Of a DNA stretch of 64,000 nt, positions 2,262-48,046 are shown in pieces. A program made the translations under genes and the position numbers. The notes below the pieces were generated by a model. It made no database searches and was not told the origin of the DNA. It saw only the letters and a program-made list of their open reading frames with translations. Every line of letters begins with the position of its first letter. The first letter of the stretch is position 1. The stretch is from Ignavibacteriales bacterium (lineage in GTDB: Bacteria; Bacillota; Clostridia; Acetivibrionales; UBA4821). The stretch covers positions 38,629 through 102,628 of the forward strand of contig JBLNBO010000003.1 in assembly GCA_050260055.1 (NCBI GenBank), read 5' to 3'.

Positions 2262-2296
2262 TATAGAGAAAGCACCTGCTTCTAATCGGTGCTTTT

Positions 2297-2497: not shown

Positions 2498-2571
2498 TAT
2501 GCCAGCCTCCTTTGAAACAATTGAAAATTAATAAATATCCGCCTGCATAGCAGACGGATATTTGATGTTTT

Positions 2572-5031: not shown

Positions 5032-5332
5032 TTACTCAGCCCCTTTATACTTTTGTAGTAACTAAACTGCTCTTTTTGAAAAAAAGAATTATACCTCATC
5101 ATTCATTTAAGAAATGAAACATTAATAAAAACTTTTTTCATTTGTAATAGAAATGTGAAAATATTGACCGTCTTTTGTGTGAAAAAGATAATATCTAGGT
5201 TTAGTCATTATTAATTATATATTAAATATTCATAAATGAAAAGACCTGGCAAAAAAAAGAAAATCAAGGAATTCCATTAAATGAAGCATTAGGAAGCAAT
5301 TCCTGATGCTTCATTTAGATTTCTTCATTTTG

Positions 5333-7009: not shown

Positions 7010-7154
7010 TTGTATCCTCCAAAAATATGTCAAGTTTTAAATATTATTGTCTGAATTGTCATTTTTTATCCCATAAAAAAGGCGAACCTTTTGGTTCGCC
7101 TTGATTTCTTGAAATTGTACTATTTTTTTAATCCATCCCGTAAATAGAGAAGGG

Positions 7155-33488: not shown

Positions 33489-33565
<77 letters not shown>

Positions 33566-33629
33566 ATATTAAATTGCGCAAGAAATATAATAGCATGAAC
33601 ACAAGTATTAGTCAACCTATACATAATAA

Positions 33630-33743
33630 AAGTTGCTTGGCAAAAACGTAATTGAAAAGCACAATGGAACCATCCGTGCAGAAAATTCAGAAGCAGGTAC
33701 GGTTTTTAAGATTATCCTAAAAATAAACAAGCCTATTTTGTAA
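33630..33743 (+). pseudogene. 3' remnant of a histidine kinase gene (last ~37 codons of the HATPase_c domain)
   Basis: The frame reads KLLGKNVIEKHNGTIRAENSEAGTVFKIILKINKPIL-stop. This is the G2-box-distal end of a sensor kinase. TAA lies immediately upstream in frame, and there is no upstream kinase body. Confidence 0.65.
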
Positions 33744-33838
33744 GCTGGCAGAGCATTATTAACAAATAATTTTAATATTAATTGCATAGACTACCAAAAT
33801 GCCATATGATTATTTATATTTATTTTTCGGAGATTAAT

Positions 33839-34717
33839 ATGAATAATTTATTTATAGAAAATTGGTTTCTGATTTTAATAGTTTCAGGCATGTTTTCTGG
33901 CTTGAGTTCTTTATATCAGAAGATTTCCCTCAAAGATAAACAGATTGACCCTATTACATTCTGCATATATTTTCAGCTTCTTGTTGGGCTTCTTTCAATC
34001 CCTACAGCCTTTTCTCAGCCAATAAAGATTGATTTGAACTGCTTTTCATTCTTAACTATATCTTTAATGGGAATTGTTTATGCCGCTGCAAGCTATCTCT
34101 ATTTTTACACCTTAAAAAAACTTGAAATGTCTGAATTTAATATATTAATAAGCTCAAGCTTGCTTTTATTGGTCTTTGGCGCATACTTTTTTCTTGGTGA
34201 AAAAATAACAAGTTTAAAATTAATTGGTGTATGTTTAATTATCTTAGGTATATCTTTAATATATATAAAGAAAACCGGTTTTTCTAGGTTGGGGAAAGAG
34301 CATGCTTTGGTTATTCTATGTGCATTAATCTCTACGGTTGCATCAATCCTTGATAAAATAAATATTAATTACTTCTCAAGCGCTCCTTTATATATGATTT
34401 TTTCTTATTTCCTTCCAGCCTTTATATTAATAATGCTAAATCCTATAAAGTCAGTTAAGCAGTTGCTTAACATTCAATTTTTCAAGCTTTCTTTGATATT
34501 AAGCATAGTTTTTAATTTCCTTTCAAGTGTATTATTTTTCAAAGTACTACAGATAGGCAGCCAAATCTCCTTGGTTTCGCCAATTCATCATATATCTATA
34601 GTCTTCTCCGTATTCTTCGGTATTGTTTTTCTAAAAGAATCTTCCGGCTGGCAAAAGAAAATAGCCGGTTCAATAATAATATTTATTGGAGCCTTCTTCT
34701 TAAAATCCTCCATATAA
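33839..34717 (+). CDS. EamA/DMT-family transporter
   Basis: About 10 TM segments in two EamA-like halves. Start set at MNNLFIENW (GGAGA upstream). The track ORF starts at 33782. Confidence 0.75.
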   Translation: MNNLFIENWFLILIVSGMFSGLSSLYQKISLKDKQIDPITFCIYFQLLVGLLSIPTAFSQPIKIDLNCFSFLTISLMGIVYAAASYLYFYTLKKLEMSEFNILISSSLLLLVFGAYFFLGEKITSLKLIGVCLIILGISLIYIKKTGFSRLGKEHALVILCALISTVASILDKININYFSSAPLYMIFSYFLPAFILIMLNPIKSVKQLLNIQFFKLSLILSIVFNFLSSVLFFKVLQIGSQISLVSPIHHISIVFSVFFGIVFLKESSGWQKKIAGSIIIFIGAFFLKSSI

Positions 34718-34784
34718 TTCATTTTTGCCCGCTCTATTAAAATAATCATAAAAAAGAATAAAAGCGAAAGGTTGAGGAAGACCC

Positions 34785-35585
34785 TCAACCTTTCGCTTTT
34801 ATAGCATTTGCAAATATTTCGATAATTTCTACTGTTTCTTCGGGAGTATAATGGACTCTTTTTCTATCATTTTTAACATACTTCTCTAATTCCTCAATGA
34901 CTATGCTATTGTATTCACCTTGTTTATGGTAGTGAAAAGCCACTCTCCTCAGGAAATTCTTAAGTTTTCCAGAATCCGGCTTTTTAAGGGATTGGGAATT
35001 AGCTAGATCCTCGAATATTGTTTTTGGGTCAAAGATTCTGCCTTTTATAACTTCCAGAACAGCCCACTGGAAAGCTCTTCTTGCTTCAAAATTGCTAAGT
35101 GTAAATACAGCATCCTTCCTAAATATTTGCTCAGCCTGTTCAATAATAAGTTTAACGTCTTTGTTTTTTATTTCTTCATCATTTTTGAATATATCATTCA
35201 AATATTGTATGCAAGCCTTACCTTTATATTTAATATATTTGATGTTTTCCCCAGGCTGATTATGCTCGCCAGCATCAGTTTGGTTTGATTTGATAGAATC
35301 AGTAATCAAGGATGGTTCTATAAGTATTGTTACTTTGTCAGGGAAGCAGTATATTCTTTCAACTACTTTTCCTTTTATTGAAACCACTCTTCTTATCTCA
35401 GCCATTTTTTTATCTGATTTAACAATTATTGCTTCTGGAAAAACCACAGTATCCCCAATTTGAGGAATAAAGCTTAGATGGCGGCCTTCTTCAATAATCA
35501 TATTTTTTAATCCAGAAAAGCCAAAAAAAGTTTTGATTAAGCCTTGAAACGAGCTTTCATTTAAAGGGTCTTTTTTGCTGTCCAT
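34785..35585 (-). CDS. hypothetical protein
   Basis: 266-aa ORF with GGAGG upstream. No recognisable motif. Confidence 0.5.
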   Translation of the reverse strand: MDSKKDPLNESSFQGLIKTFFGFSGLKNMIIEEGRHLSFIPQIGDTVVFPEAIIVKSDKKMAEIRRVVSIKGKVVERIYCFPDKVTILIEPSLITDSIKSNQTDAGEHNQPGENIKYIKYKGKACIQYLNDIFKNDEEIKNKDVKLIIEQAEQIFRKDAVFTLSNFEARRAFQWAVLEVIKGRIFDPKTIFEDLANSQSLKKPDSGKLKNFLRRVAFHYHKQGEYNSIVIEELEKYVKNDRKRVHYTPEETVEIIEIFANAIKAKG

Positions 35586-35753
35586 TCTATTGATACCTCC
35601 AAGTTACTATTTCAGCTTTCACCCGTCCTATAAGCAAATTTTTCTGCTTATTCCTTCAACTTCACTCCTTCCAATATTAAATCGAGTATTATAATAAATG
35701 TATAATAGTCTATATTTTGACAGATTTTGTATAAAAAGTCAACCAAGTTATCG

Positions 35754-35826
35754 GGTCCGTCTGTGGGTTCGAATCCCCCTAAACAAGAAAAGACACTTTC
35801 GTGTCTTTTCTTATGGCGGAGAGGGT
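35754..35826. repeat. 73-bp direct repeat copy 1 (T-arm-like fragment + terminator hairpin + last 15 nt of tRNA-Ser)
   Basis: 70/73 identical to 35933-36005 at an offset of 179 bp. Two of the three differences are a compensatory pair in the hairpin stem. Confidence 0.85.
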
Positions 35827-35932
35827 TCGGTCCACTCGTAGGGAGCATCCTCCCTTACGACGGGCCAAAACCGAACCCTGTCACCCTCCTCTGATGTATT
35901 CCTTTGAGGAATACTCTCGGGTAATTAAAACT

Positions 35933-36005
35933 GGTCCATCTGTGGGTTCGAATCCCCCTAAACAAAAAAAGACACTTTCGTGTCTTTTTTTATGGCGGAG
36001 AGGGT
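35933..36005. repeat. 73-bp direct repeat copy 2, overlapping the 3' end of the intact tRNA-Ser
   Basis: See copy 1. It contains GGTCCATCTGTGGGTTCGAATCCCCC, the hairpin AAAAAGACACtttcGTGTCTTTTT and TGGCGGAGAGGGT. Confidence 0.85.
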
Positions 36006-36081
36006 GGGATTCGAACCCACGTGACGTTGCCGCCAAACTGATTTCGAGTCAGCCCCGTTATGACCACTTCGATACCTCTCC
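35993..36081 (-). tRNA. tRNA-Ser (anticodon CGA), long variable arm
   Basis: The reverse complement reads GGAGAGGTATCGAAGTGGTCATAACGGGGCTGACTCGAAATCAGTTTGGCGGCAACGTCACGTGGGTTCGAATCCCACCCTCTCCGCCA. Anticodon loop is CTCGAAA. Confidence 0.9.
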
Positions 36082-36092
36082 ATAATTAATAT

Positions 36093-36539
36093 TTACTTTT
36101 TACGCAGTTCTTTGAAAAACTTCTTTAGAACTCCCGCGCACTCTTCTTCCATTATCCCTGTATAAACTTCAACCTTATGATTAAAACCTTTTTCAAAAAC
36201 ATTGATTACCGAACCTGCCGCCCCTGCCTTTATATCATCCGCTCCATAATAAAGTCTTCTTATCCTTGATTGTATTATTGCCCCAGCACACATAGGACAT
36301 GGCTCAAGTGTAACATATAAATCACAGTCCAAAAGCCTCCATTCTCCAAGCTTCTTTGAAGCCTTCTGAATTGCAAGGATTTCAGCGTGAGCAGTAGTAT
36401 CTTTTCTTGTTTCCCTAAGATTATGCGCACGGGCAATTATTCTATCATTCTGTACAATCACAGCCCCTATCGGCGCCTCACCTTTTTTATATGCTTTCTC
36501 AGCTTCCTGCAAAGCTGCTTTCATATATTTATTATCCAT
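36093..36539 (-). CDS. tadA: tRNA-specific adenosine deaminase TadA
   Basis: The CDA zinc motifs HAE and PCPMCAGA, in a protein of 148 aa. Confidence 0.93.
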   Translation of the reverse strand: MDNKYMKAALQEAEKAYKKGEAPIGAVIVQNDRIIARAHNLRETRKDTTAHAEILAIQKASKKLGEWRLLDCDLYVTLEPCPMCAGAIIQSRIRRLYYGADDIKAGAAGSVINVFEKGFNHKVEVYTGIMEEECAGVLKKFFKELRKK

Positions 36540-36668
36540 AACTCATCCTTAAGGATTTCATTCCTACAGCAAAGTTAATTCTACAACACTACTATTTAAG
36601 CTGTCAAGACCATAGGAAAACTCGCTTATTATAATATAACAAGCGAGTTTTCCTATGCTAATCTTACA

Positions 36669-37457
36669 CTATTGAATTGTATTTGCCATTTCTTCTACTT
36701 CGGTTGCTATGGTTTCATAGTCGCTAACCTTTATATCTTTACTTGATTCATAGCCATACTTTTCAGAAACATTCCTTATTATATCTGTATTGGCATTAGC
36801 AAGAGCATATAGCCGCTTTCTTTGCGGTTCAGTTATTGTTTTTTCTTCTTTCCCTTCCCCCGAAGAAGCATCTCCTTTTGGCTCGCCGTCTGCCTGCTGC
36901 ATTTCCTCATTTGTGTATATCCCGCTAAGATCATTTGGAAATGCCTTTCTTAGCGCTAATGCCTCTGCACATTTTCCAAGCATAAGATATGGCATCTTCT
37001 GCCACATAAATCCGTGGGTTTCCCCAGGGTAATATTCCTTCCATCTTGCAGTTGCCGTAAATGGGCATCTTTGATTGCTTATCATTTTATAAACTGTAAC
37101 TGTAGCTTTGTTTGGCGCAATAGCATCCTCCGTATCATAAACCGGGTCATCAATTCCGGCAAGCTGGCCTGTTCTTTCTGCTATTGCCCTATATCCATCA
37201 ATTCCGGTTTGGACAGTGATTGTGCTTTTAAAACTTCCGTCATTTTGCCTTGTCTTTCTTTTTACAAAATGAATTTGCTTGGTAAGCGGGTCTAATCCAG
37301 TTCTTTGGGCTATAAATAAAAACAGTTTAAGCTCATCATCTGTTGCATCTTTAGCCGAAGACGCCCTGATTAACTCAATCTGCTCCGGGTTGAACCCATA
37401 AGGAACTTCAATATTGCTTATGCTTATATTTTTATTATTCAAAACTTTCTCCTCCAA
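36669..37457 (-). CDS. recT: RecT-family single-strand annealing recombinase (phage-type), orphan
   Basis: GIDGYRAIAERTG, W(K)EY and MPYLMLGKCAEALALRKAFP are typical RecT blocks, followed by an acidic C-terminal tail. Confidence 0.85.
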   Translation of the reverse strand: MEEKVLNNKNISISNIEVPYGFNPEQIELIRASSAKDATDDELKLFLFIAQRTGLDPLTKQIHFVKRKTRQNDGSFKSTITVQTGIDGYRAIAERTGQLAGIDDPVYDTEDAIAPNKATVTVYKMISNQRCPFTATARWKEYYPGETHGFMWQKMPYLMLGKCAEALALRKAFPNDLSGIYTNEEMQQADGEPKGDASSGEGKEEKTITEPQRKRLYALANANTDIIRNVSEKYGYESSKDIKVSDYETIATEVEEMANTIQ

Positions 37458-37791
37458 TTTATTGTTTCAGTATTTACTAACTAATATTAGTTTCTACATA
37501 ATTTTTAAAAAAATGACACATTTAGAGTAAAAATGAAAGTAAATAAATTGAAAAGAGAAGTCTTATTAATAATTTAAATTTTAACGTATTGGAAAGATTA
37601 TCTAAAAGATGTATAATATTTATATATGTCTTTATATTATTTTTATCGTACAGCTCACACTTCACAAAATTTTGTAATGTTTTTCATCTTCATACGATTA
37701 AAGCTAGCTTTATTAAGATGGCCTTTATAGGTTCTTAGAACTTATAGTCGTTATATAAAAAAGATTCCCCAAAAAGAAAGGAGATAATAAA

Positions 37792-38145
37792 ATGTCAGAC
37801 AGTATCAAAATGATTAAGGAAACCAAAAAAGGGCTGAACCTATCTGAAGTTACCATTCCACGAGAATTAATTCCTCTCCAGGAACTTCTTGCAGCCAGAG
37901 CTCATGATGAATGGGTTTTAGAAATGCTCAAGCAGGAATGGAAGTTTGGGCCGGTCCATGATGAAAGTAAAAAGCAAAGCCCTCTTTTGATGAACTATAT
38001 CAGTCTTTCTGATGGAGAAAAACAAATCGCGCGGGATAAAGTTCATGATACCATTGCCGTAATGATAGTATATGGTTATGAAATTACTTCTGCGCCAGTT
38101 ACTTTTCTTGGCCCTCGGAGCTTGTATCCTTATCCGAAGAGCTGA
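37792..38145 (+). CDS. RyR-domain protein
   Basis: 117 aa. LAARAHDEWV....Q.W.FGP..DE..K..PLL..Y..LS..EK..(A)RD resembles the bacterial RyR repeat. Terminator hairpin at about 38151-38178. Confidence 0.6.
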   Translation: MSDSIKMIKETKKGLNLSEVTIPRELIPLQELLAARAHDEWVLEMLKQEWKFGPVHDESKKQSPLLMNYISLSDGEKQIARDKVHDTIAVMIVYGYEITSAPVTFLGPRSLYPYPKS

Positions 38146-38182
38146 AAAACAAAAACACCTTGCATCGCAAGGTGTTTTTGTT

Positions 38183-38258
38183 TGGTGCGCCTGAGACGAC
38201 TCGAACGTCCGGCCTGCGGTTTAGGAAACCGTTGCTCTATCCACTGAGCTACAGGCGC
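38183..38258 (-). tRNA. tRNA-Arg (anticodon CCT)
   Basis: The reverse complement reads GCGCCTGTAGCTCAGTGGATAGAGCAACGGTTTCCTAAACCGCAGGCCGGACGTTCGAGTCGTCTCAGGCGCACCA. Confidence 0.9.
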
Positions 38259-38413
38259 ATAGTTTAGCAAAAATTATTTTACATGGCTAGCCGCATTTTG
38301 TCAATCCTAACGCATTCGGTAAGCCCTTTTAAGTTTTAAGAATTAATTCTTGTCGACATTCTCCCGCTTTTATGGTAATATCTCTTATCATAATAACTTG
38401 ACAGGAGAAGAAA

Positions 38414-39004
38414 ATGCCATTTATTCCAGCATACATCTATAATAATAAGCTGTATCTTAATATAACAAACCTGTGTTCAAATAATTGCTCTTTCTGTATC
38501 AGGAACAGCTCTCAAGGTGTTGGCCATGATCTTGTGCTGGATAGGGAGCCGAGTTCAAGCGAAGTTCTGGAAGCAATTGAGAAGCTTCCGGTCTCTGAAG
38601 AGGTAACCTTTTGCGGCTTCGGCGAGCCCCTATTAAGACCAGAAACACTTATAGAGGTAGCAAAGGAAATAAAAAAGAGATACGGCTCAAAAATTAGAAT
38701 TAATACAAACGGCCTGGCTGAAAAAACCTTAAATAAAAAAATAATCCCTTCTCTTGAAGGAATCATTGATACTATATCTATTAGCCTTAATGCACATGAT
38801 GCAGAATCCTACTTTGAGGTTTGCAAGCCTAAAACCGGAACAGCTTCATATCAAGCAGTTATCGATTTCGCGCGTGAGAGCAAGAAATATATCCCTAATG
38901 TAGCGCTTTCGGTAGTAGATATTCCCGAAATTGATATAGAAAAGTGCAAGCAAATCGCACAAGAACTTGGCATTGAGCTTAGAATACGCCATCTTATTCC
39001 TTAA
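38414..39004 (+). CDS. small radical SAM protein (TatD-associated type)
   Basis: CSNNCSFC cluster motif near the N-terminus, a GFGEPL glycine-rich SAM motif, 196 aa. Confidence 0.75.
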   Translation: MPFIPAYIYNNKLYLNITNLCSNNCSFCIRNSSQGVGHDLVLDREPSSSEVLEAIEKLPVSEEVTFCGFGEPLLRPETLIEVAKEIKKRYGSKIRINTNGLAEKTLNKKIIPSLEGIIDTISISLNAHDAESYFEVCKPKTGTASYQAVIDFARESKKYIPNVALSVVDIPEIDIEKCKQIAQELGIELRIRHLIP

Positions 39005-39464
39005 TTATTCTTCCATTATGCCATTTAAAATGAGCAAGCAGGCTAGTTAAGCCAATTCCAATAAATCCTCCAAAAGTATCTATCAAAACATCTGTTACCT
39101 TAGCCGCTCTTCCCGGCACAAACGCCTGATGAATCTCGTCTGTTACTGCATAAATCAAGCAAATCAGTATGGAATATAGGAATAACTTCTTATCTTTAAT
39201 TCCAGTTGAAGATAAAGCTAAACATAATAACATCCCCAACACTGCATATTCCAAAGTATGCGCAATCTTTCTAATAAAGTAATTCCAACCGTTATTCAAA
39301 AATTCTCCCTTAAAGCCAAAGTTGTTAGCAATTCTGTTTATTTCTTGAATTACAAAAAGGCTTTGTGTATCTGACTGTATTGCAGGCTTACTGGAGAATT
39401 GAAATATTATGCTCATCCAGATTATTGCTAAAAACCAATAAATTATTACTCTTTTTAAGTCCAT
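38994..39464 (-). CDS. VanZ-family membrane protein
   Basis: 156 aa with 4 TM segments. The K..H..EY..LG and TDE.HQ.FVPGR motifs are present. Confidence 0.75.
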   Translation of the reverse strand: MDLKRVIIYWFLAIIWMSIIFQFSSKPAIQSDTQSLFVIQEINRIANNFGFKGEFLNNGWNYFIRKIAHTLEYAVLGMLLCLALSSTGIKDKKLFLYSILICLIYAVTDEIHQAFVPGRAAKVTDVLIDTFGGFIGIGLTSLLAHFKWHNGRIIKE

Positions 39465-39489
39465 TAAAAACTCTCCGTCTTTTTTAAGC

Positions 39490-40308
39490 TTAATTCTTTT
39501 TAAACAGCTTTTTGAAGAAACTATCTTTCACTTCTGTCTTTGATTTTTCGCCTTCTTGAGTATTAAGAGCTATTTCAGTATTAGCAAGATACGCAACCCT
39601 CTTTATTAGGTTCTGTATGGATGAATTGTATTTATTTTTTTGCTTTACAAATTCATTCGTCTTTTTTTGATTATAATAATCTCTCATGCTTGAAGAATAA
39701 ACAACACTTATGTGTTCTATCTGGTACATCTTTTTAATTTCGCCGGAATCCGGAAAAACATTATCTTCAAACATATTTATAACATTTATTTCTTTTACAT
39801 CCTTATGCTGATTGTAGGATTTGTACCATTCTAGTATGTAAGGATTCTGCGTCATAACATTTAGAAACACATCACAGTTAGAGTAAATAAGCCTGCTCAA
39901 TTCGCTCTGCGTTCCTGCTGTAGTATCCACAATTACAATATCAAAGGTTTTACGCGCAACCTCTATTATTTTTAAAACCTCTTCAGTATTCTTTTTAAGA
40001 TAATCTGAATTGTCTATACGGCTAGGATTTACAAGTCTTAAATTAGGCTTTAAAACTTCTGTATTTTCAATTAGAAGTTCTGATGTAAGCTCTCTGTTTC
40101 GCACTATAGAAATCAAATCATCAATACAATTTGAAGTTTTTCGGTCAACTAAGAACTCCATTTCTCCAAATAAATAATTAAAATCAAATATAAGTATGCT
40201 CAATTCCGTGTAATTAGCGAGAGTATATCCGATATTGTAAACAAGAGATGTTATTCCTTGTCCATGTTTGACACTGCCGACTCCAATAAACTTTCCCGTT
40301 TTCTCCAT
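39490..40308 (-). CDS. ParA/MinD-like P-loop protein with a degenerate Walker A
   Basis: The N-terminus GVGSVKHGQGITS aligns to the deviant Walker A xKGGxGK(T/S), but the GK Lys is replaced (G-I-T). A Walker B-like FDIVIVDT is present. Confidence 0.45.
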   Translation of the reverse strand: MEKTGKFIGVGSVKHGQGITSLVYNIGYTLANYTELSILIFDFNYLFGEMEFLVDRKTSNCIDDLISIVRNRELTSELLIENTEVLKPNLRLVNPSRIDNSDYLKKNTEEVLKIIEVARKTFDIVIVDTTAGTQSELSRLIYSNCDVFLNVMTQNPYILEWYKSYNQHKDVKEINVINMFEDNVFPDSGEIKKMYQIEHISVVYSSSMRDYYNQKKTNEFVKQKNKYNSSIQNLIKRVAYLANTEIALNTQEGEKSKTEVKDSFFKKLFKKN

Positions 40309-40436
40309 CTTGTACCTCCAGATTTTTTATACAAACTAATTATACCAAAAAATCAGATGTAAAGAACCTTTTTTTCAAATTCCCAAGGCTTTACTTATGG
40401 CTCTGCTTGTTGTATAATATGGTTTCAGTAAGCATA

Positions 40437-40513
40437 TGCGCCCATAGCTCAGCTGGATAGAGTGTTTGGCTACGAACCAAAAGGTCGGGGGTTCGAATCC
40501 CTCTGGGCGTGCC
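40437..40513 (+). tRNA. tRNA-Arg (anticodon ACG)
   Basis: GCGCCCATAGCTCAGCTGGATAGAGTGTTTGGCTACGAACCAAAAGGTCGGGGGTTCGAATCCCTCTGGGCGTGCCA. A hairpin+T-run terminator follows at about 40520-40562. Confidence 0.92.
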
Positions 40514-40573
40514 AAAGCAAAAAGGAAAGTACATTCTACAAATGATGTACTTTCCTTTTTCGTTTTAAGTCAA

Positions 40574-41176
40574 TTATCCAATCATTTCTCCATTGAGAAC
40601 TTTCATGTCTCTTTCTGTAGATTTTATCGCTTCTGCTAATATTCTCTCAGATATATACCGAATATTCTCAAGTATTGCTATTAATTCGTTCTTTTCTTTA
40701 GGATATAAATTCAAACTGTTTTGGCTAACGATTTTTAAAATAACCCCCAAAAGAATACCAGTTAGATTTTGGTTTATCTTTTCTTTTTTAGATACTCCTT
40801 TAAAAAACATAACCAGCGACACAAGTGGTTTCATTGCCTTTTTGTAAATAGGAAGCAATCCTAACGGTACAAATTGAAAATTTGTTTCTAATTGGCTTAA
40901 TGCCGCATTAATTTCTACGTTGTCTTTAAATAGGTTATCCCGGTGACTAGCTAGCAAATCCTTAAACAAACTTAAATCTTCGAGTTTTGGGACTTCACTG
41001 GAAGTTAGTCTAATGCAAACGTCCCTTTTTGGTAACTCAATTTTTGTTTCTGTTTTGTTTGAATTAAAAATAAACATTTCATCTTCTAATGTTACAGTTA
41101 TTTTTTCAATTACACCTGTTCTTTTGATTTCTTCAAGGTACGTACTTAAATCAATTTTTTTAACTTCCTTTTTCAT
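40574..41176 (-). CDS. hypothetical protein (only ORF between tRNA-Arg and its 3' fragment)
   Basis: Start set at MKKEVKK (AGGAGG 7 nt upstream). The track ORF extends to 41296. Confidence 0.5.
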   Translation of the reverse strand: MKKEVKKIDLSTYLEEIKRTGVIEKITVTLEDEMFIFNSNKTETKIELPKRDVCIRLTSSEVPKLEDLSLFKDLLASHRDNLFKDNVEINAALSQLETNFQFVPLGLLPIYKKAMKPLVSLVMFFKGVSKKEKINQNLTGILLGVILKIVSQNSLNLYPKEKNELIAILENIRYISERILAEAIKSTERDMKVLNGEMIG

Positions 41177-41416
41177 AAACATCCTCCTTATTTCTTTTTT
41201 ATCCTTAAAAACAGATATTAAATTTTTCAAATAACTTATTGACATTCTTATTACCCATCTATGCAAAGACCTTGCTTTGATGCAGACTACAGTCATATAT
41301 TTTAAAAGCTTATTTCATAAAATTATATCATGATTTTAATATATATGCTAGTATGAATTGGTGTTTTTAGGGATTCAATTTCTAATTTTTCAACATATAA
41401 AATAACGTTCCATTAT

Positions 41417-41461
41417 GCCTACGAACCAAAAGGTCGGGGATTCGAACCCTGAGAGGGCGTG
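41417..41461 (+). repeat. partial duplicate of the 3' half of tRNA-Arg(ACG) (att-like remnant)
   Basis: GCCTACGAACCAAAAGGTCGGGGATTCGAACCCTGAGAGGGCGTG. A 21-nt exact match to the tRNA begins in the anticodon loop, then the T-arm and acceptor diverge. It is followed by its own terminator, GAACGTCCtaaacGGACGTTTTT. Confidence 0.8.
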
Positions 41462-41587
41462 AAGCGTTAATGGAACGTCCTAAACGGACGTTTTTAGCTT
41501 CGCGTAAGGAGCCGGGACCCGTTCGCGGGTGGCGACGTAGGCAAATGCGAGCTTGCCGAAGCATTTGATAATCCCTCTGACCTGCCA

Positions 41588-41627
41588 TAAAAAACTGCTG
41601 ACATTATATAATGTCAGCAGTTTTTTT
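41588..41627. terminator. bidirectional intrinsic terminator
   Basis: An A-run, then the stem CTGCTGACAT / ATGTCAGCAG, then a T-run. Confidence 0.7.
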
Positions 41628-41647
41628 ACCTGATTAATAACCCTATG

Positions 41648-41899
41648 TTAAAAATTGACCCACCAGTTTATAAATCCGAATCTATACCTTCTTTTTTTCA
41701 ATCTTTTTATCTCCATACTTAATCCTATAATTCTTCCCATTTGAACCCTTGGACTATAAACCAAGCCTTCTTTTTCTCTTTCTTGTTTCTTTTCTCTTAG
41801 CTCATCTACCATGCCTTCTAATTCTTCAATCCTCCGAATCACGTTCTTGTCTAATGCCCACTCGTTGATTTTTCTCATTAATTCCGATATTTTTCCCAT
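41648..41899 (-). CDS. hypothetical small coiled-coil protein
   Basis: 83-aa ORF with GGAGG upstream. Confidence 0.45.
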   Translation of the reverse strand: MGKISELMRKINEWALDKNVIRRIEELEGMVDELREKKQEREKEGLVYSPRVQMGRIIGLSMEIKRLKKRRYRFGFINWWVNF

Positions 41900-41985
41900 T
41901 ATTATTCTACCTCCTTCATTAAATAACGTCTTTTCTTTATCAAATCCTTTATTGTTGTTAACCCTAAATGGTTCCTTTTGTTTAA

Positions 41986-42408
41986 CTACAAATGTGTTTT
42001 CCGGAAATAATCCATAAATTCAGGCAGGTCCATTTCTTGTCCGTTTCCACAATCAACACATTGACAAAGTCCGCACTCATCACAATTGCCGAGAATAGCA
42101 TCTTCATCGAAAGTAAAACATTTGTCTTGAATTTCCTCATAAAGTTTTTTCATATGGTTGAAAACTTCTTCTTTTAAATTGCCTTGTGTCGTTTGAGGCT
42201 TAAATTCTTGCCCGGTATAAAACTTACTTTCGAATCCAGCCAATAAATCGGCGAAATTGATTTTTCCACTTATTCCACACTGGAGTGTAATAAAATCAAT
42301 TAGTTCTTGGTCTTTAAGATTTGCAGAATTGAGTAATGTTTTGATTTCCATAGCGTGGGTAATAATAAGATTTTTCTTTGCAATCTGCGCTGCCGATACC
42401 ATTTCCAT
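41986..42408 (-). CDS. hypothetical protein with a C-terminal Cys cluster
   Basis: Start set at MEMVSAAQ (AAAGGAGG upstream). C-terminal CDECGLCQCVDCG. Confidence 0.5.
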   Translation of the reverse strand: MEMVSAAQIAKKNLIITHAMEIKTLLNSANLKDQELIDFITLQCGISGKINFADLLAGFESKFYTGQEFKPQTTQGNLKEEVFNHMKKLYEEIQDKCFTFDEDAILGNCDECGLCQCVDCGNGQEMDLPEFMDYFRKTHL

Positions 42409-42588
42409 TTTGTTTCCTCCTTTAAAATTTACAACCCTCACCTTTATTAAGGTTTAATCAAGCTTCCGACCTGTCCGCAATATAACATTTTGAACAATTA
42501 GGCATATTTTTTCATAAAATATAGATACTTATAGTTTACCAAGAGACAAGTTCTCTGTCAATTTAGAAAACCATAAATTACTTTTTAA

Positions 42589-42954
42589 TTAAGCCGAACA
42601 TAGCGACTTTAAAGCCTCCGCTTCAGTACTTTTAAATATTATTTTGTTGCCCTTATTAGATTCATAAATCAAAGCCTTTAAGCTCTTACTATTGTATTTT
42701 TCGAAATCGCCAATAATTGCAAGAGCCATTCCATAATTCATGTATTTCTGCATTATCTCGCCAGCAATACATGTTTTTAATTCAAAAAAGTCTTCCGTAA
42801 TGTTTTTCTTATTGATGACTACTTTATCACAATCATAGTTATGCCTAACAGTTGCCATCAAATCTAAAGAGTCTTGCACATTGTTGATGATGATATCTTC
42901 ACTTGATACAACTGCGATATTTTGACTTTCCATTTTTATTACTTTGATTTCCAT
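42589..42954 (-). CDS. DUF4180 domain protein
   Basis: 121 aa. The core F(F)ELKT.IAGEI.QKY.NY....AI.GDF..Y.SKSL...IYESN.G matches DUF4180 as I remember it. Confidence 0.7.
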   Translation of the reverse strand: MEIKVIKMESQNIAVVSSEDIIINNVQDSLDLMATVRHNYDCDKVVINKKNITEDFFELKTCIAGEIMQKYMNYGMALAIIGDFEKYNSKSLKALIYESNKGNKIIFKSTEAEALKSLCSA

Positions 42955-42984
42955 GCTTTTCCTCCTTGCACTTTTATGATTATC

Positions 42985-43050
42985 TGCATTCTCGTTGATT
43001 GGGCTGCGGTGCAGTCCTTGTGAGAGTGCATTGTTATATGTAGTAGCGAC
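42985..43050. repeat. GC-rich intergenic element, short copy (E)
   Basis: It shares TTGATTGGGCTGCGG and GAGAGTGCATTGTTATATG..GCGAC with elements A and B. An internal inverted repeat TGCATTCTC / GAGAGTGCA is present. Confidence 0.7.
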
Positions 43051-43051
43051 A

Positions 43052-43780
43052 TTAAATATTCCTTGTAAATTTGCATGCTGGGTATCCAGAACAACCTAAG
43101 AACTTACCAAATTTACCTTTTTTCATTGATAAGGCACGGCCACATTTTGGGCAAACTTCGTCATTCTGAACTTCTTCCCCCTTACTTCGTTTTTCTTTTA
43201 CTACGTTTTCAACAATTTCCTTACCCTTTGATTTGCTCATAATTTCTATAAGTTTTTTTCTATCCCAGAGCTCAATTCCGTTTGAATTTGCTAAATCATA
43301 TGCGTTTTCTGTAAATGAACTATTGGTAACTACCATTCCTTTATTAGCATCATAGTACTTAATAGCTCCTATTACTTGTTGAATAGCATCAACACCAACA
43401 TTCATCTTCCATCTTTTTGCCTGAACAACAACTTTTCTGCCGGCCTTCTTCAAAACTAAATCTGCTCCATAATCATCAGTTTTTGGAGTTAAATGTCCAC
43501 TATAACCTAAATTCTTAAAATGTTCTAATAAGTAGTCTTCAAATACCTCTCCCCGCATATTATCAATTTCATCAATCCCACTTTCAAAAAGCTTCTTCCT
43601 TTTATTCTTTTTATATTTACTAATTGCTAGGTATAATAGTCCTAAACTTCCGAGAAAGGTTAACGCTCCTAACCAAATATTAGCTGTCTTCCCCCAAACA
43701 AATATGGATAAAATTATTGAGGCACTATAAAAAGTGTCAACAATATCCTCAAATACTGTGGTTTTTTTCCCTCTGCTCAC
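43052..43780 (-). CDS. membrane-anchored Mrr-type restriction endonuclease-fold protein with a C-terminal topoisomerase-type zinc ribbon
   Basis: Two N-terminal TM segments, the Mrr_cat blocks FE.....F...GY........DYGADL and VVVQAKRW...VG, and a C-terminal CPKCG....GCSGYPACKF. GTG start after GGGAGG. Confidence 0.8.
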   Translation of the reverse strand: MSRGKKTTVFEDIVDTFYSASIILSIFVWGKTANIWLGALTFLGSLGLLYLAISKYKKNKRKKLFESGIDEIDNMRGEVFEDYLLEHFKNLGYSGHLTPKTDDYGADLVLKKAGRKVVVQAKRWKMNVGVDAIQQVIGAIKYYDANKGMVVTNSSFTENAYDLANSNGIELWDRKKLIEIMSKSKGKEIVENVVKEKRSKGEEVQNDEVCPKCGRALSMKKGKFGKFLGCSGYPACKFTRNI

Positions 43781-43820
43781 AAAGATTCCTCCCTAAAAAA
43801 TATGTCGCTATTGCATATAG

Positions 43821-44040
43821 CATCCCACACTCTCGGCGTCACAGAGTTGGACTTGCAAAGCCCTTCTTCCTCGGTGGCGGCTTGTCCGCCCAGCGATTGG
43901 GATGCGGCACAAGCTTCCCGTTGTTGATCGCTCGGTATTGGGGCTGCTCCTCAAATAATGCCAGCAAACCTATACGAGAGTGAATTGTTAAGTGATGTCG
44001 GACGTCTAATAATTCAGAAGCAACCATGGATGGGTGCTCC
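43821..44040. repeat. GC-rich intergenic element, long copy (A)
   Basis: About 55-60% GC against an AT-rich background. It aligns by eye with 44806-44998 (block CACTCTC.GC.TCACAGAG.TGGAC..GCAA.GCC.TTCT.C.T.GG.GGCGGCTTGTCC.CCCAGCGATTGGG) and contains several short hairpins. Confidence 0.75.
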
Positions 44041-44052
44041 TAATAATTAGTA

Positions 44053-44727
44053 TTAGTTATCGTTTATACAATCAATAAATTTGACACCCAAAGCTGTAAG
44101 TTTATGTATTATAGTTGACGGAGTGACACCAAAAACCATCCCATGTACAATTTTCATTTCTACAAAATTAAACTGTAGTAACTTATTCGCATTCCCTTCC
44201 AATTCTTTATGTTCTGAAGTATTGATACAATAACCATTGACTAAGTTAGTATTTAAGAAATTTAATAGCTTAATATCATCATTTGTAAGAAAATCTACAT
44301 ATTTTGAAAACATTGAAAATTCATCCCAAGAAATCTTACTCTCAACAAATCCTTTAATTAACTTTGAAATAATATTAGTCCTATTCAATTCTTCAAGCCT
44401 ATCGAGAATAATTATTATTCTTTCAGTAACCTTATCTTGGAATTTCGGATCCCGCATTTTGTATTTAAATTCATTATATTTTATAGTATCGATACTCTCA
44501 TTTTTAAACTCACATATAAATTTTATTAGTTTTTTAGTAAAAAATCGTTCTTTAATATTTAAACCTGTCTTGCAGACTGCAACTATTGATTTTATTACAG
44601 GTATTTCTTTTGCTACTCCTTCATTAAATAATGAGTCTAGCCCAACTTCAGTTATATCAATTGCAACATCTTTTGTTCCACTAGTTAATTCCTCTGCTAA
44701 TCCTTTTTGTAAATTTTCAATCTTCAT
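44053..44727 (-). CDS. hypothetical helical protein (Abi-like flavour, unverified)
   Basis: 224 aa from ATG 44727 (the track ORF uses TTG 44736). No catalytic motif recognised. Confidence 0.5.
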   Translation of the reverse strand: MKIENLQKGLAEELTSGTKDVAIDITEVGLDSLFNEGVAKEIPVIKSIVAVCKTGLNIKERFFTKKLIKFICEFKNESIDTIKYNEFKYKMRDPKFQDKVTERIIIILDRLEELNRTNIISKLIKGFVESKISWDEFSMFSKYVDFLTNDDIKLLNFLNTNLVNGYCINTSEHKELEGNANKLLQFNFVEMKIVHGMVFGVTPSTIIHKLTALGVKFIDCINDN

Positions 44728-44805
44728 AATTCTCAACCCCTTAAAATATATCCAATTTTTAGAGCAATCGCATATATACGCGTCCCTTTTACGACCAAAT
44801 TCATC

Positions 44806-44998
44806 TAACGTCCTGCACTCTCAGCATCACAGAGCTGGACCAGCAAGGCCATTCTCCTTGGCGGCGGCTTGTCCTCCCAGCGATTGGGGTGTGGAGCGGA
44901 GCCTTCTTCCTTGCTTTTCTCACCGCGACTTTACGGTAGCGCATTGTTATAAGACGTGTGCCGGGCTCCAAAGCTTAGCGGTCACGGATGGCCGCTTC
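44806..44998. repeat. GC-rich intergenic element, long copy (B), abutting the stop codon of the 483-aa gene
   Basis: Direct repeat of element A. Its terminal 58 nt are repeated in inverted orientation at 46493-46556. Confidence 0.75.
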
Positions 44999-46450
44999 TT
45001 AATCTTTACACCTTACTTTTTTCAGCTTTTCTTTAGTTGCCTCTTCATCATTCACAGATATCTCAGGAAAATTCACAATCTCTCCAGAGGTATTTTTAAT
45101 CGCTTTTCTACATTCCTTTGAGAATTTAGAATCTTTTGTATCTTTTATATATTTAGCAACATTGAACAAATCAATTGTTCTGATTAGTGCTATATTTGAT
45201 CGTTTTGCCCCACTAAAGCACTTTTCAGTAAAAAACTCAGTTCTTTCCTCTGGTGACAAGAGCCTGTAGGCATTACCAAAAAGTACCCCTTTAGCATACT
45301 CATTAACTTCATCGCGCGCAAAATCTTCTTGAATATTTCTTTCAAGTTGGCTTAATTTTTCTATGTTTATAGCTTTATTATCCCTTCCCTCAGCTTCTCC
45401 AATGAATCGCCCTTCATCACCTACAAAAACCACATCAAATTCAGATTCATCATTTTGAAATCCTTCTGCTTTAAAACCCAATATTTCGAGTGCATGAATA
45501 ATTGATAGTTCAAGAGGTTTTCCCTGTTCATACAATAATCCCCGAAGTAAACCTTCCTTTTCAATCTCTACTTCGATATTAGTTTTTTGTTCCTTAAGCT
45601 TTTCAATTTTGTCATTAATAATAGATATCTTTTCAGTTAGCTTATTTTCAATACCAAGCCTAAATTTTCTGTCTTTTGCCCAGGCTGGTAATGGTGATAC
45701 TGCTGCTCCTTTTTTTATTGCCTTATCAATTTCAATAAGGCAAGATATATACTTTTTGCCAAAAGCTTTTCCTTCCTTCGTCCACTCCCACTCATCTTCA
45801 TCTTCATCAATATATTTAATGAATTTATTCTCGTCGTATTTAATGGGTGGAATAATTAAAATGGCCCCTTTTGAATTTGTAAATTTCGCTGCAACAGTTT
45901 TATTTCCTGATTTGGTAGTTAATAAACTGCTATTAAAATCTCCTTCAAGATAAATTTCAAACGGAGAATATTTCGAGAACCCACCCCAATATGTGGATAG
46001 AACACCAATATCTTTTGTAGCCCTAATTTCTTCTCCAGATACCGGAATAACTTTTCCAATTTTAACAGGAAATACATCATAACTATTCAAAGGTCGAACA
46101 ATATTTGTGTATACTGTTGATTTCCCCGTTCCAGAAGATTGTTTTTCTCCAGTGTAAACACAAACTTCCTCAGGTTTACTTAAAAATATGAATATAGTCT
46201 TCCCAGAATCAAAAGCCTCCTTCAACTCTCTTTGCCAGTGCAAAATAACTTCAGAACTTCTAAAAGAATATGTCTGATCTAACACAGGTTTTCCATTATA
46301 CCTTTCATTATAATGATAATTATAGGGAATACCCGGATTAAATATTATTATGTCCGCATCTAATAATGAACGATCAGATTCTAATGGAATGTATTCATCA
46401 TCATCACCTGGCAAAGAATAATTTACGCAAAAAATCTTTTTTTCTGACAC
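44999..46450 (-). CDS. hypothetical 483-aa protein: unknown N-domain, central coiled coil, C-terminal nuclease-like block
   Basis: Coiled coil KLTEKISIINDKIEKLKEQKTNIEVEIEKE. It is followed by GKPLELSIIHALEILGF......SEFDVVF....GRFIGEAEGRDNK, which resembles a PD-(D/E)xK-type core. That assignment is an inference. Confidence 0.55.
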   Translation of the reverse strand: MSEKKIFCVNYSLPGDDDEYIPLESDRSLLDADIIIFNPGIPYNYHYNERYNGKPVLDQTYSFRSSEVILHWQRELKEAFDSGKTIFIFLSKPEEVCVYTGEKQSSGTGKSTVYTNIVRPLNSYDVFPVKIGKVIPVSGEEIRATKDIGVLSTYWGGFSKYSPFEIYLEGDFNSSLLTTKSGNKTVAAKFTNSKGAILIIPPIKYDENKFIKYIDEDEDEWEWTKEGKAFGKKYISCLIEIDKAIKKGAAVSPLPAWAKDRKFRLGIENKLTEKISIINDKIEKLKEQKTNIEVEIEKEGLLRGLLYEQGKPLELSIIHALEILGFKAEGFQNDESEFDVVFVGDEGRFIGEAEGRDNKAINIEKLSQLERNIQEDFARDEVNEYAKGVLFGNAYRLLSPEERTEFFTEKCFSGAKRSNIALIRTIDLFNVAKYIKDTKDSKFSKECRKAIKNTSGEIVNFPEISVNDEEATKEKLKKVRCKD

Positions 46451-46492
46451 AAATCATACTCCTCTCCAAAATGTTTTTTGCTACCCCAATAA

Positions 46493-46556
46493 ATGCCATC
46501 CGCATGCCACGAGCATGGCTGCGAACACAAATATCCGGCACATGTCCTTATAGCTA
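46493..46556. repeat. inverted partial copy (C) of the end of element B
   Basis: GCCATCCG...CCGGCACATGTCCTTATAGC matches the reverse complement of 44941-44996 (GCCATCCG...CCGGCACACGTCTTATAAC). Confidence 0.65.
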
Positions 46557-46707
46557 TTAAATCATCAAACTATGTCGGGTTAAGTTCTTGTACAGCCTGT
46601 TAACCGACACATAATCTTTCTTTGTTAATTTCCTAAACTATACCAAAATTCACTATATTTTGCAATCCGTAAAAGTTGTCTTTATGCCTTAGTAAGAGGC
46701 AAATCAC

Positions 46708-46747
46708 TCTTCTGCAAAAACTGCTTTTTGGTGTCGCTCTAAAACTT
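46708..46747. repeat. 40-nt direct repeat, copy 1 (flanks the 271-aa gene)
   Basis: TCTTCTGCAAAAACTGCTT is a 19-nt exact core, with about 34/40 identity overall to 47861-47900. Confidence 0.7.
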
Positions 46748-46805
46748 CTCCTAAAAGAAAAACCGTCCTTGAAGGACGGTTTTAAATTAATTTTCATAAG
46801 ATTGG

Positions 46806-47621
46806 CTAAGCAATCCCCAGCTCTCTATGCATTCTTTCTATAAGCAGCTTACTTAAATAAGCATACCGTTGGGGAGTCAGATATTCCTCTATCTTCCCAA
46901 GAGCTTCTGCGAAACTCTTCCCCTGGACTTCGGCGACATAGCCGTATTCCGAATCCGTGAGCCTGAAAAAGACTCGGCCGTTTTCCATTCTCACCTTGAA
47001 CTTTTTGCCAGATAATACCCAGGCATCAAGGTAGCTTTCTGCCGCGGATGTTCCAGTAAGGTATACACATTCATACGGAAGCCCGCCTGCGAGATAATCG
47101 TTATTAGCTTCTACCAAAGCAGGACGAGCGCTGTAGGACTCGCCGTAACCGACCAGCGTTCCCCGGGAATTCTCAATTCGAATAACACGGAGGCCTCCTC
47201 CAGAGCGAAAAGCCCTGATGGTATTGCCATCTCGAAGGCTATCATTCAAGCCTTTGAATCCTCCCGCTTTCTTTCTCAGGGGAATAATCGACAGCAGATA
47301 CGATACGGTTTCAGAAGCAGAGAATTTTGTAATAATAGCTAAATTCCCTCCGGAGAAACTGATAATATCGCCTTGTGATAAGTCCACTGATAAATCCCCG
47401 CCGAAGCTGATTTGGATTAGGGCCTTTTCTTGAGATTCAGGCCGTAAGATTACTTCTCCGTTGTAATAAGTTTCGCAATCGCACTCTTTGTTCCACCAGT
47501 TTGCTTTGGTTTTGGCGTTAACTTTGCTGCGAATCTCGACTTCTCTACCAATAACCTGGTTTAGCAAATATCCTACCTGAGGCGCATTTTCTGGGGTCAA
47601 GATAACCTTTCTTAATTTCAT
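46806..47621 (-). CDS. hypothetical 271-aa protein, GC-rich relative to its neighbours
   Basis: Start set at MKLRKVIL (AGGAGGG upstream). Terminator hairpin AAAACCGTCCttgaaGGACGGTTTT at 46758-46786. Confidence 0.55.
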   Translation of the reverse strand: MKLRKVILTPENAPQVGYLLNQVIGREVEIRSKVNAKTKANWWNKECDCETYYNGEVILRPESQEKALIQISFGGDLSVDLSQGDIISFSGGNLAIITKFSASETVSYLLSIIPLRKKAGGFKGLNDSLRDGNTIRAFRSGGGLRVIRIENSRGTLVGYGESYSARPALVEANNDYLAGGLPYECVYLTGTSAAESYLDAWVLSGKKFKVRMENGRVFFRLTDSEYGYVAEVQGKSFAEALGKIEEYLTPQRYAYLSKLLIERMHRELGIA

Positions 47622-47860
47622 CCAAGAAACCCTCCTTTTTTTATCCTTTTTTATGAATATCCTGTTTGAGCAATAAGCACACAAAAGAAATTTTATATCT
47701 GACAATACTCAGCATCACTTCCTGCATGCACTAATATGAGCTGTTTGCTCTGGCAGCATATTTCATAAATTAAAAAAGAAAACTATTTATATGATACTAC
47801 GGCTGGAATAAGATTACAATAACTATTTCTATAGCCCAAAAAGCCCGGAAAGTCTAATCT

Positions 47861-47900
47861 TCTTCTGCAAAAACTGCTTATTGATATTGCTTTAAAGCTT
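47861..47900. repeat. 40-nt direct repeat, copy 2
   Basis: See 46708-46747. Spacing between the copies is 1153 bp. Confidence 0.7.
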
Positions 47901-48046
47901 TATCCCAATTCGAGCAATCCAGAAATATATTTAATTTATCCTGTTAAAAAAACCTTCCTAATGATAAAATTTTTTTTAGAAAAGCTGCAACCTTTTTGTA
48001 AGTCAACTGTTTTACTTTATGAAAGGGCTAACGGGGGGGTGAAAAA

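Follow-up and report, generated by a model that had tools for sequence, protein, structure and literature searches.

When bacteria capture genes, the textbook case is the integron. The integron recombination site, attC, is an imperfect palindrome between the boxes RYYYAAC and GTTRRRY, with a second pair of repeats, an unpaired spacer and a variable centre of 20-100 nt; the AAC and GTT triplets are its most conserved positions, and it is bound as a folded bottom strand with two extrahelical bases (PMC3053210, PMC4889954), which the IntI enzymes need (PMC3053210). Clusters of attC sites that lack an integron integrase (CALIN), defined by two or more attC-type sites that share an orientation, lie within a few kb and have no intI gene nearby (PMC4889954), have been documented, as has insertion at secondary sites (PMC4889954, PMC3053210). 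Complete integrons are essentially unreported in Firmicutes, Clostridia included, and this near-absence is an acknowledged puzzle (PMC4889954, PMC9024848). Here we describe a repeated cassette-boundary element in a 64-kb stretch of contig JBLNBO010000003.1 (assembly GCA_050260055.1; this whole stretch is called the window). We consider it reasonably probable that three mobile cassettes make up 42.97-46.55 kb of the window, in a short array that lacks an integrase and is in decay, and that this array belongs to an integron-like system with an atypically large site. In the literature we found no description of such arrays.

The spacers between the genes are copies of one element

Every open reading frame (ORF) from 41648 to 47621 lies on the minus strand, as described in an earlier reading made from the letters of the window alone (the sequence-only reading). 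That reading also pointed to GC-rich spacers and a GC-rich stretch nearby, and measurement agrees: the spacers at 43.8-44.0 and 44.8-45.0 kb reach a GC content of up to 0.62 and the stretch at 46.8-47.3 kb has 0.49-0.59, where the window as a whole averages 0.36. The patchiness loses its force as a sign of foreign DNA, since the GC peaks of the spacers are a repeat whose own GC content is 0.53-0.55. The sequence-only reading had missed that this single repeat accounts for two long spacers and a short one. The spacers upstream of an Mrr-type nuclease gene and of a gene for a 224-aa protein are copies of one element, 81% identical over a 94-nt core, and a truncated third copy lies upstream of a DUF4180 gene, also on the minus strand; a covariance-model search of the window with filters off found no fourth. 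Read along the minus strand, the order is 483-aa gene, element 1, 224-aa gene, element 2, Mrr gene, truncated element 3, DUF4180 gene, Cys-rich gene and 83-aa gene. The cassettes and their boundaries are as follows.

46535-46554, minus strand: start of cassette 1, GCTA (46554-46551) then the arm TAAGGACATGTGCCGG, with no element core upstream
44999-46450, minus strand: cargo of cassette 1, a 483-aa protein in which a coiled coil accompanies a flavodoxin/GATase1-like N-domain and a PD-(D/E)xK-like C-domain (homologues and structural model)
44998-44977, minus strand: 5' hairpin of element 1 with an AUCCGU loop, immediately past the stop codon of the 483-aa gene
44800-44958, minus strand: boundary element 1, short-interior type, TAAC at 44949-44946 and GTTA at 44809-44806 (152.7 bits, E 1e-36)
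44053-44727, minus strand: cargo of cassette 2, a 224-aa protein of a large uncharacterised family (homologue search)
44043-44014, minus strand: 5' hairpin of element 2 with a UCCA loop
43812-43999, minus strand: boundary element 2, long-interior type, TAAC at 43990-43987 and the 3' box GCTA at 43821-43818 (149.9 bits, E 5e-36)
43052-43780, minus strand: cargo of cassette 3, a 242-aa nuclease of the Mrr type whose N-terminus is hydrophobic and which has a zinc ribbon of the Top1 type (Pfam, PADLOC)
42971-43045, minus strand: boundary element 3, truncated, its 5' half kept (TAAC at 43036-43033) and the rest deleted past the CCCAATC block (17.3 bits; E 0.0013 with filters off)

The spacers are not coding remnants, as the short ORFs that cross them differ in frame between the two copies. 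Public short-read contigs in Logan that carry the same genes stop exactly at the elements, as expected of a multi-copy repeat.

The element recurs in co-oriented arrays

A 25-nt core pattern led to one contig of a metagenome-assembled genome (MAG), L005, with three copies. A 19-nt pattern matched 32 metagenome stretches, of which 14, all with a GC content of 0.31-0.38, carry the other conserved blocks; 17 loci with GC above 0.43 lack those blocks and any match to the model, and were set aside as chance matches. The covariance model, built from 20 copies, finds 61 copies in 15 low-GC metagenome or MAG loci, the window among them, and none in the chance loci. Copies are dense, with 17 in 13.2 kb of L012 (all on the plus strand), 8 in 10.1 kb of L019 and 7-8 in 6.7 kb of L018, and within each contig they occupy a single strand, co-oriented with the genes apart from an inverted HicAB-like cassette in L036. 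Searches of the viral contigs of IMG/VR, the plasmids of PLSDB and the phages of GenBank found no similar element.

The cargo of the arrays includes toxin-antitoxin-like pairs, GNAT, APH and Fic proteins, a methyltransferase, OsmC, queuosine salvage proteins, an M24 peptidase and DUF proteins, and 11 of 20 sampled cargo proteins have no Pfam match. Elements also stand beside housekeeping-looking genes, which we identified by eye: behind the last element of L029 (1143-2694) comes an argininosuccinate-lyase-like ORF, and an RsgA-like gene and a LOG-family gene form cassettes in L033 (47-2050). Promoter-like sites in the L012 array are at chance level (56 vs 53.9 ± 7.8), which disposes of the idea that a promoter, resembling TGnTAnnnT, follows the 3' hairpin of the element. 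L012 and L018 have 1328 bp in common at 99.85% identity and diverge directly after ...GACGTTA, in keeping with a junction at that point.

Conserved boxes and helices enclose a replaceable centre

The consensus of the element is ACATC-N'N'N'-TAAC-AA-[10 nt]-interior-[10 nt complementary]-GRGAC-GTTA-NNN-GA(A/C)AT. The folded repeat spans 130-190 bases, with TAAC and GTTA 102-181 nt apart in full copies, and extends to ~300 nt at most with its flanking hairpins. Of the 58 distinct copies, 53-54 have letters in the columns of these two outer boxes, and 50-53 of those read TAAC and GTTA; the seventh base after the G is mostly a pyrimidine, a purine prevails at the first position of the 5' box, and the middle positions are unrestricted in this respect. 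RNAalifold on the raw alignment returned invariant helices alone, and the structure was then set by hand and tested. Over the 58 distinct copies 88.5% of cells pair, compared with 30-41% when the partners are slid, and 15 pairs are changed on both sides, a count reached by none of 500 shuffles.

Past an asymmetric unpaired spacer (AA vs GRGAC, or 2 vs 5 nt) lies an inner L-like helix of 10 bp, which is 90% paired and has 6 pairs changed on both sides; its variants are CTCTCG/CGAGAG, CTCCCG/CGGGAG, ATCTCCG/CGGAGAT, CTTGCG/CGCAAG and GTGTCTCCG/CGGAGACAC. No conserved single-base bulge occurs in this helix, and a 2x2 mismatch is found in one subfamily only. Between the conserved boxes the interior takes the form of at least four unrelated modules, and conserved boxes around a replaceable centre fit a recombination site better than the core of a ribozyme or riboswitch. 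A riboswitch, ribozyme or other known RNA was rejected on the same modularity, on the folding of single copies as RNA, which is no better than that of shuffles (z -0.8 and +1.5), and on Rfam 15, in which only tRNAs reach the gathering score and nothing lies over the elements at E <= 5; a passing likeness to the twister motif was dropped. Folded as single-stranded DNA, the two strands are equivalent (top -32.3, bottom -32.2 kcal/mol), which removes the case for folding of the top strand only.

GC-rich hairpins with a conserved RTCCNT loop flank the element, 39-44 nt before TAAC and 26-29 nt after GTTA. Their stems covary and their loops are oriented (28 sense vs 6 antisense), and they are optional, being absent from about half of the copies. 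Examples are found at 7580-7605 and 6598-6615 of L012 and at 44998-44977 and 44043-44014 of the window. The loop resembles the anti-Shine-Dalgarno sequence, and candidate roles for the hairpin are a protein binding site or a signal for translation or stability.

The two ends of each cassette are complementary to one another

Hall, Brookes and Stokes are said to have deduced the integron crossover in 1991 from the agreement between the first bases of a cassette and the inverse core of the site belonging to that cassette. This relation is found here too. In 28 of 42 cassettes the triplet that follows GTTA is the reverse complement of the triplet preceding the TAAC of the next downstream element; the two triplets that flank the same element match in 4 of 52 cases (shuffles: mean 4.4, maximum 12 in 10,000). 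Flanks that are unrelated in this way also dismiss a miniature inverted-repeat transposable element with target-site duplication. The private complementarity is between the first 15 nt after GTTA and the 15 nt before the next downstream TAAC, not those of the adjacent element: at the variable positions 1-3 and 8-15 agreement is 80-95% with the cassette's own end vs 17-56% with the neighbour's, at the conserved GA of positions 4-5 it is equal (98 vs 96% and 68 vs 67%), and positions 6-7 form a conserved mismatch (AxA/CxA and AxC). The arms are 91% Watson-Crick over 36 cassettes. It follows from this own-end complementarity that the unit is NNNGAAAT... gene(s) ...N'N'N'TAAC-core-GTTA, whose ends pair with each other, and the site formed by joining them is ~8 kcal/mol more stable than the site in the array in 36-37 of 39 cassettes, on either strand. 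Because the signature is independent of the order of cassettes, errors in assembling repeats cannot create it.

In the window, the arm TAAGGACATGTGCCGG at the start of cassette 1 (junction 46551|46550) agrees with the reverse complement of the sequence preceding the TAAC of element 1. Since no element core lies upstream, this start would be an attI-like or a secondary insertion site. The first 15 nt of cassette 3 (from 43817 downward) agree at 12 of 15 positions with the reverse complement of the sequence preceding the TAAC of element 3, with a perfect TAT/ATA triplet, and the arms of cassette 2 are complementary at 9 of 15, which suggests decay. GCTA replaces GTTA at two of the three cassette junctions of the window (46554-46551 and 43821-43818) and at none of ~55 junctions elsewhere; these junctions may reflect decay or conversion between junctions.

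Could such pairing act in RNA alone? The upstream GTTA arm and the downstream TAAC arm would then close each mRNA with a ~19-bp stem, for processing by RNase III or for stabilisation, the cores would be spacer RNAs, and the shuffling of genes would be due to homologous recombination. The co-orientation of elements and genes is in line with this, as are the wobble pairs of the interior helices (111 G.U vs 33 A.C on the sense strand, outside the P1 extension) and the fact that in a linear array the upstream GTTA and the downstream TAAC lengthen the stem around the gene; homologous recombination would also give a breakpoint at the repeat end, as between L012 and L018. The arms themselves, however, have no G.U excess (10 G.T vs 13 A.C among 468 positions), and the L-like helix outside its first pair has no wobble bias (12 G.U vs 22 A.C). 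The HicAB-like cassette of L036 is inverted, single elements fold like shuffles, the interior is modular and replaceable, and the invariant AAC and GTT boxes with their fixed asymmetric spacer point to a recombination site recognised by a protein; the restriction to accessory or orphan genes would also be left without explanation. We therefore regard an action in RNA only as quite unlikely.

A proposed cassette cycle and its relation to integrons

On the recombination reading, which we prefer, a cassette would consist of one or a few genes and a 130-190-nt site, the latter made up of an outer R-like box (N'N'N'TAAC ... GTTANNN), the inner 10-bp L-like helix and the modular interior. Recombination would cut at or within the invariant GTTA. 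On excision, the GTTA at the 3' end of a cassette would be joined to the cassette's own first bases, and this joining would complete a helix of ~19 bp (4 + 5 + 8 bp around the conserved 2x2 mismatch) in a folded, single-stranded site. The completed site would be the substrate for re-insertion beside another GTTA, and repeated re-insertion would build head-to-tail, co-oriented arrays.

The likeness to integrons, above all to CALIN and to the arrays of sedentary chromosomal integrons, extends over several levels. In both systems accessory or orphan genes, for the most part without promoters, are lined up head to tail in one orientation, each with an imperfect palindromic site behind it, and in both the sites of a lineage are more similar to one another than their cargo is. 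The near-invariant TAAC and GTTA carry the AAC and GTT triplets as the outermost conserved boxes, and beyond an unpaired spacer follow an inner helix (the L box, or second inverted-repeat pair) and a variable centre. The start of a cassette complements its own inverse core, which puts the crossover at or near GTT. Cargo of toxin-antitoxin pairs, acetyltransferases and nucleases, an inverted toxin-antitoxin-like cassette, and short integrase-less clusters at secondary sites are also shared. By analogy, the elements of the window can be called attC-type sites: as in CALIN, all three (two full, one truncated) share the minus strand and fall within 2 kb, and no tyrosine recombinase was found in the window. 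The window array has the look of a small cluster in decay, lacking an integrase and situated at a secondary site.

Other observations weigh against an integron-like system, or against its being active here. The sites are long, 102-181 nt from TAAC to GTTA and ~300 nt with hairpins vs 57-141 bp for attC, with many copies above 141 nt; the private arms measure 15 nt (plus TAAC/GTTA) vs ~7 nt for the R box; and consistent extrahelical bases are absent, the asymmetry residing in the spacer (2 vs 5 nt). Conserved wobble pairs on the sense strand hint at folding of RNA or of the top strand, whereas IntI uses the bottom strand. The breakpoint shared by L012 and L018 could also be explained by homologous recombination or by a metagenome mis-join inside the repeat, and no circular cassette, empty site or strain polymorphism was observed. 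With mismatched arms in one cassette, two GCTA junctions and a truncated element, the copy in the window is probably inactive. Nor did a recombinase linked to the arrays come to light: none was found in the window, and the sole IntI-like gene, in L036, stays under the IntI cutoff, is without the IntI insertion and forms a pair with an IS91 transposase.

Which enzyme could act on the sites?

An IntI-like tyrosine recombinase or an HUH-type enzyme could be responsible, and the window encodes neither. The sequence-only reading had seen no integrase, and tblastn of the 64-kb window with IntI1 and the IntI-like protein of L036 as queries indeed finds no tyrosine recombinase; no HUH gene was found in the window either. 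A complete integron, with an intI gene that has the additional domain, an attI site and a Pc promoter, is not present in the window, and the promoter-like site and attI-like junction there are consensus-level observations only. The region of L036 upstream of its first cassette (1191-6405) holds genes for an IntI-like tyrosine recombinase, IS91-family and IS4 transposases and a REP-associated tyrosine transposase (RAYT). The IntI-like protein scores 211 bits on TIGR02249, in two stretches, against a cutoff of 265. The IS91-family transposase gene (427 bits) is in the same orientation as the first cassette and ends 270 nt before its GTTA, and the RAYT gene lies 5 kb upstream. No other recombinases were seen close to an array, and in this single, IS-rich locus their genes are a lead, not a result.

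These neighbours make it worth asking whether the same cassettes are moved by an HUH single-strand DNA enzyme (a rolling-circle Y2 transposase of the IS91 type or a Y1 enzyme of the RAYT/IS200 type) and not by a tyrosine recombinase. Such an enzyme would nick after GTTA and terminate at the next GTTA, releasing a single-stranded circle of one cassette that would re-insert 3' of another GTTA. IS91/ISCR, IS200/IS605 and REP-RAYT elements do have a specific tetranucleotide at the insertion point (IS91 elements insert beside GTTC or CTTG), end hairpins and a strict orientation, and they use single-stranded circular intermediates. The RTCCNT hairpins, at fixed distances and mostly in one orientation, would be typical of strand-specific recognition of single-stranded DNA, and the sense-strand wobble pairs of the interior also favour this. 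Unlike the cassettes, these elements either bring a transposase with them or consist of short REP hairpins, and they have neither arrays of unrelated genes with 150-nt two-helix sites nor unit-specific terminal complementarity. The adjacency in L036 concerns one locus crowded with unrelated insertion sequences (IS4, IS91 and the integrase) and may be due to chance, the hairpins are missing from about half of the copies, no HUH gene is present in the window, and the TAAC/GTTA box, spacer and second helix are closer to the attC geometry of tyrosine recombinases. We judge movement by an HUH enzyme to be unlikely.

Somewhat less remote, and still tentative, is the possibility that Clostridia of the Acetivibrio/Ruminiclostridium group have a gene-capture system of their own, analogous to integrons and mechanistically distinct. 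Its hallmarks would be the large structured sites, the 15-nt private complementarity completed only in the excised circle, and the RTCCNT-loop hairpins, and its recombinase would not be a classical IntI; candidates are an IntI-less enzyme like Xer, an HUH enzyme of the IS91 or RAYT type, or another. The conserved, covarying interior modules and the hairpins are unlike integrons; in addition, no IntI with the specific insertion was found in the window or in L036, and the host belongs to Clostridia, a group with essentially no reports of complete integrons (PMC4889954, PMC9024848).

The tRNA-Arg(ACG) repeat lies outside the array

The sequence-only reading proposed a different origin for the region, an island inserted by an integrase at a tRNA-Arg gene and carrying novel defence systems, among them one made up of the 224-aa and 483-aa proteins. 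The tRNA features on which it relied are present.

40438-40514, plus strand: intact tRNA-Arg(ACG) with CCA encoded (ARAGORN; Rfam tRNA, 65.5 bits)
41416-41461, plus strand: diverged copy of the tRNA 3' half, then its own terminator hairpin (91% over 34 nt)

ARAGORN and Rfam identify the intact tRNA, and the repeat comparison identifies the copy, which is 91% identical over 34 nt, then has a diverged acceptor and its own hairpin and T-run. As in tRNA-targeting genomic islands, the 3'-half copy is displaced from the intact gene, here by 949 bp. Unlike in such islands, whose limits are set by the tRNA gene and a direct repeat of that gene's 3' end and which carry or carried an integrase, the duplication brackets a 0.95-kb remnant (40515-41415) whose sole ORF is 40574-41296 on the minus strand, and it includes no integrase. 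The repeat search of the window found no other tRNA-derived repeat at the far end of the array. The tRNA repeat is a separate, older footprint; the cassette array sits beyond it and takes its organisation from another repeated element, so that the array cannot be said to be anchored at the tRNA. The nuclease domains and the defence-type genes around homologues of the 483-aa protein (see below) speak for the island, and the boundary elements that separate its genes speak against it, as does the failure of the 224-aa and 483-aa families to occur together in three contexts examined. An integrase-less, same-strand array of accessory genes with two nuclease-type proteins is what survives of that proposal, and as a whole, with its tRNA anchor, its protein pair and its two orphans, we think it very improbable.

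Two further observations concern this end of the region. Right after the tRNA fragment, 41461-41626 holds a GC-rich 120-nt stretch that ends in a perfect 19+19-nt palindromic terminator (41589-41626) and folds far better than shuffles (z -5.2); it is not a copy of the cassette element and belongs to no Rfam family. Four tRNA genes lie within 7 kb at 33489-40514, with small genes between them, and three of the four are arginine isoacceptors (TCT, CCT and ACG).

Cargo proteins and flanking genes

The sequence-only reading had recognised a DUF4180-like protein and an Mrr nuclease with a topoisomerase-type zinc ribbon, and Pfam confirms both (DUF4180, E 7.5e-39; Mrr_cat, 9e-34, with Zn_ribbon_Top1, 7e-14); the remaining ORFs have no match in Pfam, PADLOC or PHROG. 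In PADLOC 2.0 the Mrr domain alone matches (a ZorD-like nuclease domain and type IV restriction enzymes), no complete system is found, and the 483-aa and 224-aa proteins have no match.

Neither of these two proteins is the orphan it had been called. The 483-aa protein has more than 1336 homologues at ~50% identity across bacteria and in Methanosarcina, which are stand-alone genes in variable neighbourhoods beside GmrSD, ParE, HicB and Mrr genes, and the 224-aa protein, without a Pfam domain, has 2216 cluster representatives. The supposed pairing of the two fares no better: a cassette-boundary element lies between the genes, and in the three other genomes examined the 224-aa protein is unrelated to the neighbours of the 483-aa homologues. 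The claim of a nuclease-like C-terminus in the 483-aa protein finds support in its fold. An AlphaFold model (30 sequences; pLDDT, the predicted local distance difference test score, 87) combines a flavodoxin/GATase1-like N-domain and a long helix with a C-domain that resembles the PD-(D/E)xK nucleases HindIII and NucS/EndoMS (Foldseek probability ~1, with weak E-values of 0.008-0.04), and D339, E352, E354 and K365 are invariant. In Methanosarcina sp. (L039 6001-10638, JJOZ01000022.1) an Mrr_cat nuclease gene follows a 483-aa homologue within 2 kb, its product 39% identical to the Mrr domain of the window; the order mirrors that in the window, where the two genes are separate cassettes. From the neighbourhoods of the 483-aa homologues, a putative role of the nuclease cassettes in defence is plausible.

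Further genes flank the array on both sides.

46806-47621, minus strand: GC-rich 271-aa gene upstream of the array, with 40-nt direct repeats on both sides, 46708-46747 and 47861-47900 (composition, repeats)
46637-46783, minus strand: terminator of the 271-aa gene (46783-46759), then the promoter-like TTGCAA-17-TG-TATAGT (46665-46637) towards the array (consensus scan only)
41648-42954, minus strand: three ORFs without recognisable boundary elements, encoding proteins of 83 aa (41648-41899) and 151 aa (Cys-rich, 41986-42441) and a DUF4180 protein (42589-42954) (ORF list, Pfam)

The promoter-like site at 46665-46637 is a candidate promoter of the array. The direct repeats around the 271-aa gene are 85% identical, and on the minus strand a promoter-like site follows each copy at a distance of ~45 nt (47819-47791 and 46665-46637), so that the surroundings of the gene look like a promoter region duplicated around an inserted gene. 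That the 271-aa gene encodes a hidden recombinase was considered and rejected: its homologues, from Candidate Phyla Radiation (CPR) bacteria and Nanoarchaeia, span only half of the protein and have no linkage to the arrays. At the other end, no element was found in 41648-42954 by covariance-model search with filters off, and the 83-aa, Cys-rich and DUF4180 ORFs may be decayed cassettes or ordinary genes.

Host and significance

The window includes the genes tig-clpX-lonB-lon, and its LonB (5333-7033) scores above the equivalog cutoff for sporulation LonB (857 vs 723 bits), its closest named relatives, at 68-70% identity, being from Pseudobacteroides, Acetivibrio, Ruminiclostridium and Clostridium. 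Judged by these genes, the host is a spore-forming Clostridia bacterium near Acetivibrio, Pseudobacteroides and Ruminiclostridium. Public MAGs with these sequences are named 'Ignavibacteriales bacterium' and 'Deltaproteobacteria bacterium' at NCBI, labels that the sporulation-type LonB and its Clostridia relatives show to be wrong. The sample came from paddy soil (PRJNA951521; PMC11660960).

The site probably escapes standard tools, and the covariance model together with the test for own-end complementarity now offers a means of finding such arrays and a defined substrate for identifying the recombinase. The arrays also supply a pool of compact accessory genes, including nuclease-type candidates for phage defence, in agreement with recent work in which the cassettes of integrons serve as reservoirs for defence (bioRxiv 10.1101/2024.07.02.601686). 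The arrays, which come from paddy soil and other metagenomes and number up to 17 cassettes in 13 kb, show that cassette-type gene storage exists in uncultured Clostridia. If the system should prove to be distinct from integrons, it would amount to an independent, second way of capturing cassettes and would help to explain why classical integrons are missing from Firmicutes.

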